This document shows, in pieces, positions 19,537 through 25,744 of a stretch of DNA of 38,467 bases. This stretch comes from Gammaproteobacteria bacterium (GTDB taxonomy: Bacteria > Pseudomonadota > Gammaproteobacteria > GCA-002705445 > GCA-002716945). The notes under the pieces were generated by a model. The model was not told the DNA's origin and ran no database searches. It worked only from the letters and a program-made list of their open reading frames with translations. The number at the start of each line of letters is the position of its first letter. The first letter of the stretch is position 1. The stretch spans positions 1-38,467 of the forward strand of contig NZZP01000003.1 in NCBI GenBank assembly GCA_002698665.1, read 5' to 3'. The position numbers and the translations under genes are program-made.

Positions 19537-20533
19537 TAATATTCCTATCATTTATGAATGAATATGGTGATTTATTAAGTATAAAAGAAGAGATTAACAA
19601 TTCAAGTTTATGCCAAACATCAGTATGTGAATAACTAGTTTTAATAGACAAATCTATTTCATGGCAGTACTCCATCAATCTCTTTAATAAAGGCTTATCC
19701 AAACTATCGTAAATCTGATAATAGAGATTTTTTCTGAAACTAGGTATATATGGCATAGGTGATACTTCATGATGCAGGCTATATATTTTTTTTAATTCTA
19801 AATTTATTAAGAACAAAATATATACCTCGGGTATTTTAATTGTATGAAGATATTTGAGTATCTTTATGGTTTTAGCAAGATTTTTCTCAAGTAAACAATT
19901 TACGAGATCATATTCATTATACTTATACTCTTTCTGAAGAAGATTAAAATAATCATCAAGATCTTGAACTTCTAGTAAAGACATCTTATATAGTTCTTGA
20001 GATATCGCAGATGTATTGCCTTCATTTTTTTCCATCAATTTTTGAAATTGATTTTCAGAAAAATTAATTTTATTTTTTTGAAATTTTGCCTTCACCCAGT
20101 TTTTTAAATCTAAGCCCTTAAGTTCTGTTACTTCAATAATGTGGCCCGTATTATCAATAATTTTAAACAGGTTAGTTTTCTTGAAAGCTGAAGTTTGTGG
20201 CCCAAGCTTCAAAATAATCTTCAAGTCATCAGGTAAAACAACTGTCTGCAAGAAATCTGTAAGACACTTAGGTATTGAATTAGAAACCACTGCTAATATT
20301 AGAATTTTTTTTTCATTAAATAAAGATAAACTATTAAAATCATCAGATATTATTGAAATATCAAAATCTGAATCTACCACAACTCGTTTAACGAGAGTTT
20401 CATCATGTCTTAACATTCTTTCTAATCTAGATTGAACCTCATTTAACAGATGATATGGATTCCCAAATACGAGATAAATGGGTGAAACCGGTATATTGTT
20501 GTTAACAATGAATTGTTTATAAGTTATTTTCAT
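19523..20533 (-). CDS. holA: DNA polymerase III delta subunit, divergent
   Basis: PIYLVFG.P..L, SLSLF.EKK, EGN..A..QEL.K; length and position upstream of proA-nadD. Confidence 0.85.
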   Translation of the reverse strand: MKITYKQFIVNNNIPVSPIYLVFGNPYHLLNEVQSRLERMLRHDETLVKRVVVDSDFDISIISDDFNSLSLFNEKKILILAVVSNSIPKCLTDFLQTVVLPDDLKIILKLGPQTSAFKKTNLFKIIDNTGHIIEVTELKGLDLKNWVKAKFQKNKINFSENQFQKLMEKNEGNTSAISQELYKMSLLEVQDLDDYFNLLQKEYKYNEYDLVNCLLEKNLAKTIKILKYLHTIKIPEVYILFLINLELKKIYSLHHEVSPMPYIPSFRKNLYYQIYDSLDKPLLKRLMEYCHEIDLSIKTSYSHTDVWHKLELLISSFILNKSPYSFINDRNINGYK

Positions 20534-20566
20534 ATGATAAATGTCTTAGATTCTATACAATATATC

Positions 20567-21457
20567 ATGGATATCAAAAAAGCTCATAAAGAAATTGGAT
20601 TTATCGGTCTTGGTATTATGGGAAAACCCATGGCTGATAATCTAGTAAAGGCTGGCTTTAATGTTAGTTTTTATGCAAGGCGTAAATTAATAATTGAAGA
20701 TATGATCGCAAAAGGAAGTAAATTTCTACCTAGCGTTTCTGATGTTTCTAAATCATGTAAAATAATTTTTTTAAATTTACCTGAAAGTAAAGATGTTAAG
20801 AATGTTGTGCTTGGAAGAAATGGTTTATATAAAGGGCTTCAGAAAAATACGATTATAATTGATATGAGCACAATATGTCCAAACGTAACTCAAGAGTTAT
20901 CTAATACCCTACTGAAAAAAAATTGTTACTTGATAGATGCACCAGTTTCAGGTGGTGAGATAGGTGCAATAAAAGGTACTTTGTCCATAATGGTAGGAGG
21001 TGACAGACAAAAGTTTCTAAAAATTAAAAGCTTACTAAATACTTTAGGAAAAGATATTACTTACATAGGTAAGTCAGGGTCTGGACAAATAGCTAAAGCA
21101 TGTAATCAAATTTTAGTTGCAGGGACCATGTCGGCTGTTAGTGAAATACTAATATTAGCTGACAAATTAAAATGTGATAAAACTCTTATTAAGAAGGCTT
21201 TAATGGGGGGTTTTGCTAAGAGTAAAATATTAGAAGTACATGGCGAAAGAATGATTAAAAATAATTACAAGCCAGGATTCACCTCTAAACTACACCTTAA
21301 AGATATGATTATAGCTCGTAATTTAGCTCGAAAAGTTGGATTAAAACTAATGGGTGCAAATAGATCGCTTCAGCTTTTAAAACAAGTTAAGAAATCAAAA
21401 CTATCAAATAAAGATTCTTCGATTATACATAAAATGATTATAAAGAAATCAAAATAA
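20567..21457 (+). CDS. NAD(P)-dependent beta-hydroxyacid dehydrogenase (2-hydroxy-3-oxopropionate reductase-like)
   Basis: IGFIGLGIMGKPMA, IDMST, DAPVSGG, KACNQ, PGF...LHLKD; start placed at ATG 20567 to avoid overlap with holA. Confidence 0.9.
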   Translation: MDIKKAHKEIGFIGLGIMGKPMADNLVKAGFNVSFYARRKLIIEDMIAKGSKFLPSVSDVSKSCKIIFLNLPESKDVKNVVLGRNGLYKGLQKNTIIIDMSTICPNVTQELSNTLLKKNCYLIDAPVSGGEIGAIKGTLSIMVGGDRQKFLKIKSLLNTLGKDITYIGKSGSGQIAKACNQILVAGTMSAVSEILILADKLKCDKTLIKKALMGGFAKSKILEVHGERMIKNNYKPGFTSKLHLKDMIIARNLARKVGLKLMGANRSLQLLKQVKKSKLSNKDSSIIHKMIIKKSK

Positions 21458-21496
21458 AGTATTTAAAATATAATCACTATTTTATATAATATCACT

Positions 21497-21898
21497 ATGT
21501 TAGGAAAAAATTTTGAAAATCTACTAAAAAGCAATGGTATCACGCCTACAAAGCAAAGGTTGGAAATAGCTGATTTAATATTTGTTAAGAATCAACATTT
21601 CAACGCAAGTGATTTGATAGATAAAGTCAAAAATGCTGGACTGCCAATATCACAAGCTACAATATACAATACCTTGTGTTTGTTTGAACAAAAAGGTTTG
21701 CTCAAAACTATTAATCTAAATAATGATCACAAATTTTTTGATACAAATTTAGAGCCACATCATCACATGTATAATACTAGCAACAACACACTTACTGATA
21801 TAAGTAATGAAAAAATAAGTTTTTCTAAACTACCTGATATTCCAAAGAACCTTTCAGTTGAACAAACTGAAGTATTAATCAAAGTCAAAAATAAGTAA
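21497..21898 (+). CDS. Fur-family regulator, Irr/PerR-like
   Basis: T.QR, QHF, S.ATIYNTL, FFDTN..PHHH, LTDI, LPDIP tail; no CxxC zinc motifs. Confidence 0.9.
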   Translation: MLGKNFENLLKSNGITPTKQRLEIADLIFVKNQHFNASDLIDKVKNAGLPISQATIYNTLCLFEQKGLLKTINLNNDHKFFDTNLEPHHHMYNTSNNTLTDISNEKISFSKLPDIPKNLSVEQTEVLIKVKNK

Positions 21899-21900
21899 TA

Positions 21901-22482
21901 TTAGCTGAAATCATCAGACAACGTCTCAATTACTTTTAGAGACAACTCAGTATGCTTATCATACTGACTATGATCAGTGCCTATTGAGACATTATTTGAA
22001 TCTTTGAATTTACTTACACTAATATCGTCAAGTTCAAATCGAAGAAAATGAACCGCAGAAGTTTTTTCGTCTCTGCTCCTTTCAAGATCCTCATCTGCTA
22101 TAGCAAATATCCGTTTACCATTGTCAATTGATAACCATATATTATTTTCTATATCATGTAGTTTGTTTAGCATAGTTTTACGCTCCGCTACATTTGGGTA
22201 CATAATAAGCATCGTAGCTTTTAAGTTACTGCCATCAGGAATTAATGCACTGTATGCTGATATTTCCTCATCTATTTCTTTGTCATTAAAAATCTTCTCT
22301 ATTCGCAACATTTCCTGAATTTGATACTTAATTGTCTTAAAATCTTCAAATAATAATAATATGTTTTCTCCTATTTTTACTGATCTATGTTCCTTGTGTT
22401 TAATAATTTGTAATTTAATATCATCTCTTTTTTTATCATATTCTTCTAGAGAGAGTAGTTCATCTTTTATTAACTTATTCAT
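21901..22482 (-). CDS. DUF3501 family protein
   Basis: LFE..TI.YQIQEMLRIEKIF, Y..LIPDG.NLKAT, EKTSAVHFLRFEL; third gene of the rubrerythrin cluster; SD GGAGG. Confidence 0.9.
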   Translation of the reverse strand: MNKLIKDELLSLEEYDKKRDDIKLQIIKHKEHRSVKIGENILLLFEDFKTIKYQIQEMLRIEKIFNDKEIDEEISAYSALIPDGSNLKATMLIMYPNVAERKTMLNKLHDIENNIWLSIDNGKRIFAIADEDLERSRDEKTSAVHFLRFELDDISVSKFKDSNNVSIGTDHSQYDKHTELSLKVIETLSDDFS

Positions 22483-22494
22483 ATATATACCTCC

Positions 22495-23796
22495 TTATAG
22501 CCCATATGCACGTTTAATAAGTGAAATTGGGTGAGTTGCGTTTATTTTTTTGCCAATTGCATTCACTACATGATGAGCCGCTAATGTGCAGTCACTTGTA
22601 ACAAAATCAGACTCTGTTTTCTCAAATTCTCGTACGATAGGCTTTGCAATTTTTATAGCTATCTCATGAGTTTCTTGCTTTACACCATATGTACCGTCAT
22701 GACCGGAGCATCGCTCAATAGAATTAATGGTAGTATTAGGTATCAGCTCAAGTATTTTCTTTGTCAGGGGCCCCATATTCTGGACTCTCTGATGGCATGC
22801 TACTTGGTAAAAAACACTCCCTAAATGATTTTTAAAATCAGTATCCAATAACCCTTTGTTGTGCAATAAAGCAAGATATTCAAATGGATCAAAAATAGAT
22901 TTAGAAATTAGAGATACATCTTTATTTTCTGGAAATAGTAGTGGCAATTCTTGTTTAAACATAAGTATACATGAGGGAACAGGTGCTATGATTTTGTACC
23001 CATCATTTACATATTTCTTAAATATATTGATATTAGACTGCATCATTTTTTCAACTTGAAGCAGATCCCCTAATTCTAATTTAGGCATGCCACAACAATT
23101 ATCTTCTTGTATGACTTTTACGTGAACCTGGTTATGTTCTAAAACAGAAACCAAATCATCTACAACATTTGGCTCATTGTAATTATGGTAACAAGTTGTA
23201 TAAATAGCTACTTTTTGATTAGTTTCAAATGTACTATTCATATTTAAATACTTTGATTTAGCTGTCACACTGGCAAATTTTGGCAATGAAGCATTTCGAT
23301 GGATATGAAGTACTTTCTCAAGAATTAATCTAAAAATCTTTGTATTATTAAAAAAGTTCACAATAGGTGCGATAATTTTCTTAGACGCAAATCTTCCTAA
23401 GTAATCTGTAGATGAAATGATTTTATTTCTAATTGATGCACCTTTTTTATGGTGATTGATAGCTTTAGCACGTAGCATTAAGTGTGGAAAATCTATTTCC
23501 CATTCATGTGGAGGAATGTATGGGCATTTGGTTAGGAAACATAAATCGCATAAGTAGCAATGATCCACTACATCTTGAAATTGCTCATACCGCACACCAT
23601 CAACTTCAAATGTATCTGATTCATCAATCAAATCAAACAGAGTTGGAAATGAGTTACACAAACTGACACATCTTCTACATCCATGGCAGGCGTCAGCAAC
23701 TCTTCTCAATTCTTTCTCAAAAAGCTCTTCGTTAAGATAATCTTTATTCTTCCAATCGACGGCATATCGCGTCGGAGCTTGAAGGCCACCTTCCAT
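22495..23796 (-). CDS. Rubrerythrin-associated Fe-S oxidoreductase (GlpC/HdrD-like)
   Basis: CHGCRRCVSLC and CYLCDLCFLTKCP ferredoxin-type motifs, CCGMP and CSGHDG CCG-type domains; SD GGAGA. Confidence 0.9.
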   Translation of the reverse strand: MEGGLQAPTRYAVDWKNKDYLNEELFEKELRRVADACHGCRRCVSLCNSFPTLFDLIDESDTFEVDGVRYEQFQDVVDHCYLCDLCFLTKCPYIPPHEWEIDFPHLMLRAKAINHHKKGASIRNKIISSTDYLGRFASKKIIAPIVNFFNNTKIFRLILEKVLHIHRNASLPKFASVTAKSKYLNMNSTFETNQKVAIYTTCYHNYNEPNVVDDLVSVLEHNQVHVKVIQEDNCCGMPKLELGDLLQVEKMMQSNINIFKKYVNDGYKIIAPVPSCILMFKQELPLLFPENKDVSLISKSIFDPFEYLALLHNKGLLDTDFKNHLGSVFYQVACHQRVQNMGPLTKKILELIPNTTINSIERCSGHDGTYGVKQETHEIAIKIAKPIVREFEKTESDFVTSDCTLAAHHVVNAIGKKINATHPISLIKRAYGL

Positions 23797-23810
23797 AATG
23801 TTTCTCCGGT

Positions 23811-23844
23811 TAAAAATAAACCTCTTATTTAGAAATAAGAGGTT
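23811..23844 (-). terminator. Intrinsic terminator-like hairpin between rubrerythrin and the Fe-S oxidoreductase
   Basis: Perfect inverted repeat aacctcttattt-ag-aaataagaggtt (23819-23844) followed on the minus strand by tattttta. Confidence 0.7.
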
Positions 23845-23855
23845 ATAATTTTAGA

Positions 23856-24275
23856 TTAGGAAATAGCTTCCAGTGCTTTTGTGAATCTATTTGCATGAGA
23901 CCTTTCTGCTTTGGCAAGTGTTTCAAACCAATCCGCAATCTCATCAAAACCTTCATCGCGAGCTGTTTTAGCCATGCCAGGATACATATCAGTGTATTCA
24001 TGGGTCTCACCAGCTATCGCAGCTTTAAGATTCATCTCGCTATTACCTATAGGTTCTCCAGTCGCAGGGTCACCGCATTCTTTTTCTAGGTATTCTAAGT
24101 GGCCATGGGCATGACCAGTTTCACCTTCAGCAGTTGATCTAAAAACAGTTGCAACATCGTTTTGTCCTTCAACATCTGCTTTAGCAGCAAAATATAGGTA
24201 TCTTCTGTTGGCTTGTGACTCTCCTGCAAAAGCATCTTTTAGATTTTTTTCAGTTTCTGAACCTTTTAAACTCAT
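23856..24275 (-). CDS. rbr: Short rubrerythrin (di-iron domain only, no rubredoxin domain)
   Basis: [37 protein letters not shown]; 139 aa, no CxxC; strong SD AAGGAG. Confidence 0.95.
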
Positions 24276-24331
24276 TTTCTTTCTCCTTATGTGTTCATAA
24301 ACAAATTATATAATCATTGAATGTATGACTA

Positions 24332-24348
24332 TTTAGAATCATTCTAAT
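24332..24348. promoter_or_regulatory. ICE/Per-box-like operator TTTAGAATCATTCTAAT
   Basis: Perfect 7-1-7 palindrome TTAGAAT-C-ATTCTAA; one mismatch from the Irr ICE consensus TTTAGAA-N3-TTCTAAA; overlaps the rbr -10 box. Confidence 0.78.
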
Positions 24349-24369
24349 TTCATATATAATGTTTGTCAA
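24341..24369 (-). promoter_or_regulatory. Sigma70 promoter for rbr
   Basis: Minus strand TTGACA (24369-24364), 17-nt spacer, TAGAAT (24346-24341). Confidence 0.8.
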
Positions 24370-24395
24370 TACTAATGTGTTAAACTTATAAATAT

Positions 24396-24414
24396 AACAA
24401 TGATTATCATTCTT
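24396..24414. promoter_or_regulatory. Fur box-like site
   Basis: aacAATGATTATCATTctt; 15/19 match to the reverse complement of GATAATGATAATCATTATC, central 13 nt exact. Confidence 0.6.
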
Positions 24415-24424
24415 AATAGCAGCT

Positions 24425-25453
24425 ATGAACTTATCTAAAAATGTATTTGAAATATACAAAAAGATAATATTTTTATTACCACCTGAAACAGCTCATGTAA
24501 TTAGCTTAAATTTAGCTGAAATAGTATTTAAACTATGGCGCAAAAATCAAAGAAAAGAAAATGAGGTCATGCGATCAAAAAAATTTATGGGTATTGAATT
24601 TCCAAATCAATTGGGTTTAGCAGCTGGGTTTGATAAAAACGGAGATTATATAAATTTCATCAGCAACATAGGTCTCGGTTTTATTGAAATAGGCACAGTG
24701 ACGCCTAAACCACAATATGGAAATCCTAAGCCTAGGATTTTTAGATTAATTCAAGATGAAGCAATAATAAATAGTTTAGGTTTTAATAATAAAGGGGTTA
24801 AATATCTTAAAAAAAAATTATCTAAAGTAGAACGAAATCAACCCATCGGTATTAATATAGGAAAAAATAGTACTACGCCTATAATTGATGCTCATAATGA
24901 CTATAAATATTGTATGGATGAAATTTATCATTTAGCTGATTACATCACACTAAATATATCATCACCTAACACTAAGGATCTAAGACAATTACAAGCTGAA
25001 TCATATTTTGATAATTTTTTATATAATATTAAAAACCATCATCAGAAACTCGTCAGTAAATTTAAAAAAAATATTCCATTAATTGTTAAAATATCTCCGG
25101 ATATAGAGGATAATGACTTACAATCTTTATGCAAATTATTGATACGATATGAAGTTGAAGGAATCATTGCAACAAACACGACAATTTCAAAACCTAAAAA
25201 TCTTATCAGCAAGGCTAAACTTCAAAGTGGAGGACTTAGCGGAAAACCCCTACTTGAAAAATCTAATAATCTCATTAAAAAAGTAAAAAATTTAGTTGAT
25301 GATAATATTACTATAATCGGAGCAGGTGGAGTTACCTCTTCAATATCAGCAAATACTAAATTAGAATCTGGCGCAGATTTACTCCAGTTGTATACCGGGT
25401 TAGTTTTTCATGGGACAGACTTAATAAAGGAAATAACTAGAAGTTTTAGATAA
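24425..25453 (+). CDS. pyrD: Quinone-dependent dihydroorotate dehydrogenase (class 2)
   Basis: GLAAGFDKN, GTVTPKPQYGNPKPR, NISSPNT, VKISPD, TNTT, GGLSGKPL, QLYTG. Confidence 0.97.
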   Translation: MNLSKNVFEIYKKIIFLLPPETAHVISLNLAEIVFKLWRKNQRKENEVMRSKKFMGIEFPNQLGLAAGFDKNGDYINFISNIGLGFIEIGTVTPKPQYGNPKPRIFRLIQDEAIINSLGFNNKGVKYLKKKLSKVERNQPIGINIGKNSTTPIIDAHNDYKYCMDEIYHLADYITLNISSPNTKDLRQLQAESYFDNFLYNIKNHHQKLVSKFKKNIPLIVKISPDIEDNDLQSLCKLLIRYEVEGIIATNTTISKPKNLISKAKLQSGGLSGKPLLEKSNNLIKKVKNLVDDNITIIGAGGVTSSISANTKLESGADLLQLYTGLVFHGTDLIKEITRSFR

Positions 25454-25744
25454 TTACTTTGGTTCCCATTTACCAAAAGCCTCTTGGCTTTCAGCCGTAT
25501 TCTTATTTGATGTATCGTTCACAGCTTTAGTTTGCTGATCATATACATATCTAATAAAGTCAATCAATTGATCAAGGATTTCTTTTTGTGCATCTTTAGG
25601 TATTCCAGAAGTAGCAACAATTGACCCTACCACGGCAGATAGATATTGAGCGGCTAATACCGGATCTTCATTAGCCTTATCATAATCTACAAGTACTTTT
25701 TGTAGGCCCTTTATTAATTCTGGTTTTAAAACAATTTCTGCCAT
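25454..25744 (-). CDS. Small helical hypothetical protein
   Basis: 96 aa ORF filling the gap exactly; protein-like composition; QYLSAVVG and EAFGKWEP motifs. Confidence 0.75.
   Translation of the reverse strand: MAEIVLKPELIKGLQKVLVDYDKANEDPVLAAQYLSAVVGSIVATSGIPKDAQKEILDQLIDFIRYVYDQQTKAVNDTSNKNTAESQEAFGKWEPK

Follow-up and report, generated by a model that had tools for sequence, protein, structure and literature searches.

A candidate Irr/PerR-branch repressor and its Irr-box operator at the rubrerythrin operon of a small-genome gammaproteobacterium

Introduction

Repression by the Fur-family protein Irr through the operator called the Irr-box, or ICE, has been established experimentally in Bradyrhizobium. 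The published ICE consensus is TTTRGAAYNRTTCYAAA (PMC1698941), and in the same work Rodionov et al. (2006) predicted a minimal regulon for Pelagibacter ubique, with one rubrerythrin gene under Irr; they state that Irr and ICE were not found outside the alphaproteobacteria. Genes for rubrerythrin (RBR), for a CCG-domain Fe-S oxidoreductase named RFO and for a DUF3501 protein together make up the cluster that Cardenas et al. (2016) describe as 'aerobic-type rubrerythrin' (PMC5114695). Here we analyse an rbr-RFO-DUF3501 operon, and a Fur-family gene that converges on its end, in a stretch of 38,467 nucleotides of gammaproteobacterial DNA (GenBank assembly GCA_002698665.1, contig NZZP01000003.1, positions 1 to 38,467 of the forward strand), to which we refer as the window. 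To judge from sequence, the circuit predicted in 2006 for alphaproteobacteria appears in another bacterial class.

The surface ocean, where hydrogen peroxide arises daily, harbours small-genome marine gammaproteobacteria in abundance, and we found no description in the searchable literature of peroxide-defence control without OxyR in such bacteria. Searches outside subscription journals likewise returned no description of the present circuit in gammaproteobacteria. We propose that the Fur-family protein, a member of the Irr/PerR branch that is Cys-less in the sense of lacking CxxC, represses a small peroxide-defence regulon that includes rbr, a reading to which we assign a probability of about 0.55.

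Results

The operator and promoter of the rubrerythrin operon

The features on which the argument rests are the following.

21497-21898, plus strand: Irr/PerR-branch Fur-family regulator, 133 amino acids (PF01475, 71.5 bits)
23856-24275, minus strand: rubrerythrin (rbr), 139 amino acids, without a rubredoxin domain (PF02915, 101.8 bits)
24333-24347, unstranded: operator, the 7-1-7 palindrome TTAGAATCATTCTAA, read as an Irr-box/ICE
24341-24346, minus strand: -10 hexamer TAGAAT of the rbr operon promoter, within the operator
24364-24369, minus strand: -35 hexamer TTGACA, 17 nucleotides from the -10
24396-24414, unstranded: second Fur-family-type 7-1-7 box

On the minus strand, TTGACA (24369-24364) and TAGAAT (24346-24341) are separated by a 17-nucleotide spacer and agree with the consensus at 11 of 12 positions, confirming the near-consensus promoter, with its -10 hexamer as one arm of a palindrome, that an initial annotation of the window had described. 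This is the best of 23 promoter-like matches in 21300-24600, a number that is not enriched, as shuffled sequences average 18.3. At 24333-24347 lies the palindrome TTAGAAT-C-ATTCTAA. Its plus-strand right arm is the reverse complement of the -10, and the palindrome also covers the predicted start of rbr transcription at about 24334. The exact palindrome is present once in the window, none of 100 shuffles holding any, and once in the entire genome to which the window belongs as contig C18 (G000; 1,192,655 bases, 31% G+C, 47 contigs, estimated completeness 92.7%).

A motif scan upstream of rbr orthologues, on which the initial annotation had made the circuit depend, finds the exact palindrome in all 29 related loci that hold the start of rbr, spread over five genera. 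In these loci it lies 22 nucleotides after a TTGACA-type -35 (21 in one). Among the 26 distinct sequences, all 14 specified bases of the palindrome are invariant, the central base is C or G and each base of the -35 is retained in 96-100%, with majority identity at 0.71 in the spacer and 0.60 downstream. The 37 genomes of the family contain 61 copies of the exact 15-mer, one to three in each of 36 genomes; the reversed control pattern is seen four times. Read on the rbr strand (24331-24347), the window site agrees with ICE at 16 of 17 positions, and the sites of most relatives at 17 of 17. These matches support the identification of the rbr palindrome as a full Irr-box, and its placement over the -10 fits repression of rbr.

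The second box stands between the -35 of rbr and the start of pyrD, with its centre 36 bp upstream of that -35, at about -72. It is nearer to a Fur box than to ICE and contains one perfect Fur-type half-site. With a limit of five mismatches to a 19-bp Fur-box consensus, such a box is found in 25 of the 29 loci. Its distance from the -35 is exactly 36 bp in 22 of these 25, even though leaders range between 36 and 80 nucleotides among loci. A position near -72 would suit an upstream activator or co-regulator. A related element stands at the corresponding place in katG promoters. Between the two boxes, the plus-strand element TGTTAAACT (24378-24386; TGnTAAACT in relatives) is conserved as well and looks like an extended -10 of the divergent pyrD gene.

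The regulator and its relatives

The initial annotation had described a Fur-family gene converging on the operon, with HHH, no CxxC and an H/D/HxH/D ligand pattern, and this description is upheld. The three histidines are residues 88-90, the single cysteine precludes a CxxC, and H34, D82, H88-H90, D101 and N58 are invariant in an alignment of 12 sequences. PerR and Irr are told apart from Fur by an Asp ligand and by an Asn in the DNA helix (PMC8638967). In the regulator, the ligand that discriminates is Asp, not Glu, and the DNA helix has Asn where the genome's own Fur has Arg. H34, D82, H88, H90, D101 and N58 agree with what PMC8638967 expects of PerR, a penta-coordinate regulatory site (His, Asp, His, His, Asp) and the helix Asn; the same residues are retained in bona fide Irr. 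Irr proteins lack CxxC (PMC8638967). The Cys-Pro haem regulatory motif is absent from the regulator sequence, while a true Irr in the set (L212) has one; this motif is not needed in every Irr (PMC1698941).

Scored against the NCBIfam models, the Irr members of which are the equivalogs NF045677 and NF045678, the regulator reaches 114.7 bits for IrrA (cut-off 150) and 114.3 for Irr (170), compared with 78.3 for PerRA (200), 58.9 for PerRB (250), 49.6 for the Clab PerR model (180) and 32.4 for the Therm PerR model (200). The Fur model gives 31.1 bits (cut-off 146), in keeping with the Asn and the missing CxxC. Among solved structures, the closest relative is Leptospira PerRA (5nl9, E 9.6e-14). 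Taken together, scores and residues support the assignment of the neighbouring Fur-family protein to the Irr/PerR branch.

Orthologues with 55-77% identity are encoded in 34 of the 36 other genomes of the same family. Neither regulator nor rbr was found in the remaining two, G008 and G026, which are 84% and 90% complete, so that absence is not proven there. The closest protein relatives found in protein searches come from gammaproteobacterial metagenome-assembled genomes (MAGs), many of them from marine surveys. The host would seem to be of the SAR86 type. That Irr is mainly alphaproteobacterial, as the initial annotation held, agrees with PMC1698941 and PMC8638967; a scan of species genomes nevertheless returned 593 relatives, and the best 80 of these are mostly from gammaproteobacterial MAGs (Woeseiaceae, Steroidobacteraceae, Chromatiales, Thiotrichales and Cycloclasticus). 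A sample of 301 genomes of the phylum includes 50 with a protein above the Irr cut-off, none of them in the class of the window, and the window regulator falls in an intermediate score band.

The initial annotation had called for a phylogeny against Irr, PerR and Fur. The tree of 118 rows has one Fur outgroup, no PerR rows and no named Irr, its true Irr rows being defined by the NCBIfam cut-off; one row holding X (L047) was dropped and long amino-termini were trimmed to 150 residues. The sample is biased, since rows were chosen for their similarity to the query. In this tree, 83 rows, including all 11 of the window's family, form one clade (SH-aLRT 100), whose members are all gammaproteobacterial or unclassified MAGs. 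A branch of length 1.63 parts this clade from the over-cut-off Irr rows and four alphaproteobacterial MAG proteins. The regulator would accordingly be placed in a gammaproteobacterial sister clade of alphaproteobacterial Irr. All seven other gammaproteobacterial clade members tested fall below the Irr cut-offs (97-130 bits); the three ICE-adjacent alphaproteobacterial regulators that were scored (L133, L124 and L116) reach 175-192 bits, over both Irr cut-offs, and score lower on PerRA than those seven.

A recent transfer from an alphaproteobacterium finds no support. Among 400 sampled genomes of the phylum, a sample with no recognisable SAR11 genome, the closest matches outside the family are two genomes of the same class (43% and 35% identity), with all others at 30-39%.

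Co-occurrence of regulator gene and site

Three GC-rich gammaproteobacterial loci (L097, L101 and L108) contain the same convergent cassette, with palindromes that co-vary. That of L101, TTAGACTAATTCTAA, and that of L108, TTTAGAC-N3-GTCTAAA, sit on a TAGACT -10; that of L097 is ATTAGAATGGGTCTAAA, and no -35 or -10 was read there. In one Rhodobiaceae MAG the order is regulator, ICE, rbr operon, and in two alphaproteobacterial MAGs it is regulator, ICE, katG. No SAR11 sequence was identified among the compared loci. These arrangements support an association of gene with site across several lineages of gamma- and alphaproteobacteria. No ICE-like box lies within 5 kb in 61 of 76 other gammaproteobacterial loci (L075-L150).

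At seven gammaproteobacterial loci (L084, L085, L088, L107, L117, L125 and L137), an ICE-like box is found no more than about 25 bases from where the regulator gene starts, for example ATAGACTTTGTCTAA, suggesting autoregulation there. The window's own regulator gene is not preceded by such a site.

Other promoters with the operator

The initial annotation had called the circuit self-contained. This does not hold, as the operator is also present at ftsH (contig C44) and, in relatives, at katG, peroxiredoxin and iscRU genes, and the second, Fur-type box stands beside the rbr promoter. In two genera of the family, katG replaces the rbr operon between the regulator gene and pyrD, with the operator and a TTGACT-17-TAGAAT promoter kept. 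At the ftsH promoter, downstream of rlmE, the palindrome lies over the -10 in 27 of 30 loci, 16 of them with an exact and 11 with a one-mismatch copy, leaving three without; the site in G000 is ATAGAATGATTCTAA at C44:14846. A Prx5-type peroxiredoxin gene (Redoxin, PF08534) bears an exact site in 7 of 11 loci, and iscR-iscU carries the operator in two genomes. No haem-biosynthesis or iron-uptake targets were seen among the operator-bearing genes. Since the operator is found on rbr, katG, peroxiredoxin, ftsH and iscRU promoters, the predicted regulon is one of peroxide removal and repair.

When G000 is scored with a weight matrix, no more than two sites exceed 14 bits, that of rbr (27.0 bits) and that of ftsH (15.0 bits). 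Sites with up to two mismatches number 29 in G000, with about 49 expected from shuffles of the window (1.58 per 38 kb), so there is no excess of them. One sequence at a single mismatch from the operator, TTAGAATATTTCTAA at C3:51692-51706, ends two bases before the start codon of a UvrB-like gene. At C44:13645-14900, a thiol-peroxidase-like gene is divergent from rlmE-ftsH, beside the second operator-bearing promoter.

No LysR-type helix-turn-helix was found in G000 with a search that was positive in 13 of 14 known genomes used as control, which argues that OxyR is missing. Among the 37 family genomes, one has a LysR-type helix-turn-helix, on a 1.2-kb contig.

Gene order and neighbouring features

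The remaining features of the locus are as follows.

20513-21457, plus strand: MmsB-like dehydrogenase gene
21901-22482, minus strand: DUF3501 gene, the last of the rubrerythrin operon (PF12007, 220.7 bits; synteny conserved)
22495-23796, minus strand: CCG-domain Fe-S oxidoreductase gene, RFO (PF02754 CCG, two stretches)
23819-23844, minus strand: terminator-like hairpin of 11 pairs, between rbr and RFO
24425-25453, plus strand: pyrD

The order is mmsB-like dehydrogenase (plus), Fur-family gene (plus), DUF3501, RFO and rbr (minus) and pyrD (plus); the regulator gene and the convergent DUF3501 gene stop 2 bp apart. This arrangement, from mmsB through the regulator and the operon to pyrD, is retained across the family. 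The operon agrees in full with the definition of an aerobic-type rubrerythrin system in PMC5114695, with PF02915 alone in a protein of 139 residues, PF02754 twice and PF12007. GlpC models score the RFO protein under their cut-offs. Rubrerythrin is 90-96% identical in those 27 of the 29 family loci that have a full-length gene and 86% identical over a fragment of 36 residues in G019; the genes flanking rbr have 49-77% identity across the same family loci. As judged from these identities, the rubrerythrin protein is under unusually strong constraint.

In one locus (L063, G019:C16:40100-46049), rbr and DUF3501 are present as fragments only and the RFO gene is gone, and the regulator, the -35 and the exact operator are still retained, suggesting that the cargo genes were recently deleted. 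In L064 (G036) the regulator, RFO and mmsB genes are split by frame breaks or TGA, and in L060 (G033) RFO is split; for these, assembly errors are more likely than decay. A 96-residue open reading frame at 25454-25744 adjoins pyrD and has no Pfam match; similar frames are found at the same place in L049-L051, L168 and L250.

RNA-library contigs from four studies cover rbr; being contigs, they give neither expression levels nor true transcript ends, and stretches that they leave uncovered are uninformative. Contigs of two runs (23724-24138 and 23714-24006) cross the hairpin at 23819-23844 from rbr into the RFO gene. The hairpin would therefore be at most a partial terminator, setting rbr above its partner genes, and this is its probable role. 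Contigs of two studies stop at 24318 and 24319, 15-16 nucleotides short of the predicted start, a weak hint that the 5' end is near that start.

Discussion

A proposed mechanism

We infer the following scheme of binding, start point, repression and signal from the sequences, their conservation, the family scores and the joint presence of gene and site. A dimer of the regulator would bind the 15-bp palindrome, a full Irr-box. As the palindrome covers the -10 and the predicted start of the strong rbr-RFO-DUF3501 promoter, the bound protein would exclude RNA polymerase, and with the regulator off the DNA the near-consensus promoter would fire. Oxidation of a metal or haem centre (H34, D82, H88/H90 and D101) may abolish DNA binding and release the scavenger genes. 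At the separate Fur-type box near -72, iron status is probably conveyed by the true Fur, the second Fur-family protein of G000, encoded on contig C6.

Of the initial proposal, the part in which the regulator represses rbr via the palindrome is supported by the Irr/PerR-branch assignment, the full ICE, the co-occurrence of gene and site and the position on the -10. Between the two signals that it offered, haem or iron and peroxide, a peroxide-responsive, PerR-like output seems to us somewhat the better wager. It is favoured by the make-up of the regulon and the absence of an OxyR-type regulator, and the protein is most likely the cell's peroxide-defence switch in a lineage without such a regulator. 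Two operator-bearing targets, peroxiredoxin and ftsH, are not iron users, which speaks against pure iron sparing. FtsH uses zinc, not iron.

Alternative explanations

The strongest competitor is a canonical Irr, a reading that is possible and has odds clearly short of even. In it, the apo-protein binds ICE at low iron or haem and represses iron-costly proteins, here the di-iron rubrerythrin and its Fe-S partner, the haem protein KatG and Fe-S assembly, until haem from ferrochelatase, bound at HHH, releases or destroys the repressor. Several observations agree with it and weigh against the peroxide-defence reading. The regulator ranks the Irr models first (114 bits, above any PerR model, the highest of which gives 78), yet it passes no curated cut-off, and its operator is a full ICE. 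The H/D/HxH/D pattern is equally conserved in bona fide Irr and cannot separate the two readings; HHH is invariant, HHH/HXH is the conserved haem-binding motif of Irr, and apo-Irr binds ICE (PMC7762939). A ferrochelatase is encoded in the genome, as the haem model would have it. Since rbr, katG and isc need iron or haem, iron-sparing logic explains most targets, and rbr-like genes, katG and suf are predicted or shown to be Irr targets in alphaproteobacteria (PMC1698941, PMC3413700). Furthermore, the peroxiredoxin gene of G000 itself lacks the site, so that in this genome only rbr and ftsH carry the operator.

Other observations fit a canonical Irr poorly. The operator is also found on the ftsH gene and on that of the metal-free peroxiredoxin, a separate Fur-type box already gives an iron input, both Irr cut-offs are missed, a long branch separates the regulator from alphaproteobacterial Irr and there is no Cys-Pro motif. 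In iron-limited Ca. Pelagibacter ubique, transcripts of rbr increased 1.57-fold, and those of suf and a protease also went up (PMC2864753), where a canonical Irr would have rbr fall. Such a rise would be the opposite of Irr-type iron sparing; the datum comes from another organism, a SAR11 bacterium, and the change is small, which lessens what it adds to the peroxide-defence reading.

A role for the regulator as anti-repressor or co-activator, exerted chiefly in concert with Fur or in opposition to it at the two boxes, and not as a simple repressor, is improbable. Such a role would make use of the fixed phase of the two Fur-family boxes (36 bp in 22 of 25 loci), Irr is able to activate or anti-repress (PMC7762939; reference list of PMC8638967), and in alphaproteobacterial loci ICE lies just upstream of the -35. 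In the window, ICE covers the -10 and the start point, the classic position for a repressor, and no upstream Fur-type box was noticed on reading the ftsH and peroxiredoxin promoters, which were not scanned for one.

Equally improbable is a reading in which promoter architecture, or binding by a different factor such as the true Fur, accounts for the palindrome and the neighbouring gene is linked by chromosome history only: the -10 inside the palindrome means that one arm is conserved for RNA polymerase anyway, and a second Fur-family protein and a nearby Fur-type box are at hand, but the arm outside the -10 is just as invariant, the palindrome persists at ftsH in genus g5 although -35 and spacer differ, it co-varies with the regulator in GC-rich lineages, it matches ICE and not the Fur consensus, and the Fur of G000 has the Arg typical of Fur-box readers where the regulator has Asn.

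Implications

More broadly, and only tentatively, Cys-less ICE-binding Irr-like proteins with tiny regulons, in the gammaproteobacterial clade and perhaps in SAR11, might be regulators of peroxide stress, not of iron, and the missing OxyR/PerR equivalent of streamlined ocean bacteria. If so, such proteins would gate FtsH and Fe-S repair along with the scavenger of each lineage (rubrerythrin, KatG or peroxiredoxin), and Irr, PerR and Leptospira PerRA would form one functional continuum reading the same DNA box. A circuit of one regulator and two promoters with a perfect operator would be an easy system for comparing haem or iron sensing of the Irr type with peroxide sensing, an ambiguity that has also been raised for Leptospira PerRA and PerRB (PMC8638967). 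The rbr, katG, peroxiredoxin and ftsH promoters may serve as markers from which to read oxidative or iron stress in metatranscriptomes.

Comparison with known systems

With the Irr/ICE systems of Bradyrhizobium japonicum, Rhizobium leguminosarum and Rhodobacter sphaeroides, the locus shares a Fur-family protein of the Cys-less type (the window's regulator has one Cys), HHH/HXH, an operator that fits TTTRGAAYNRTTCYAAA, a site overlapping the promoter of the repressed gene, as for blr7895 and bfr, and peroxidase and catalase genes among the targets (PMC1698941, PMC3413700, PMC7762939). Unlike alphaproteobacterial Irr, the window regulator scores below the cut-offs, falls in a separate clade, belongs to a gammaproteobacterial host and has no haem regulatory motif, and its predicted regulon includes ftsH and, in relatives, a metal-free peroxiredoxin.

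The predicted Irr-rubrerythrin system of Ca. Pelagibacter ubique is likewise that of a streamlined marine bacterium with Fur and one Irr-like protein, in which rubrerythrin behind ICE is the main predicted target (PMC1698941). It differs in belonging to another bacterial class; in the window, the operator overlaps the -10 and the regulator gene is convergent with the operon.

Leptospira interrogans PerRA (5nl9) also lacks a structural CxxC, and it shares the Asp ligand of PerR/Irr type and the Asn of the DNA helix; its operator resembles Irr boxes, and PerRA and PerRB may work as Irrs (PMC8638967). What is shared with PerR is a predicted regulon of peroxide scavengers, the operator being placed on rbr, katG and peroxiredoxin promoters. 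Unlike PerR, the regulator scores only 32-78 bits on the PerR models (cut-offs 180-250), and the window operator presumably differs from the Per box of B. subtilis at positions 4 and 12 of the 7-1-7 site. OxyR of Escherichia coli controls katG, peroxiredoxin and Fe-S repair genes in response to peroxide; as an unrelated LysR-type activator, it is a functional analogue only. Relative to these systems, what is new for the lineage is the wider regulon (ftsH, peroxiredoxin, iscRU and the exchange of rbr for katG), the lack of OxyR-type regulators, the separate gammaproteobacterial clade and the second box in fixed phase.

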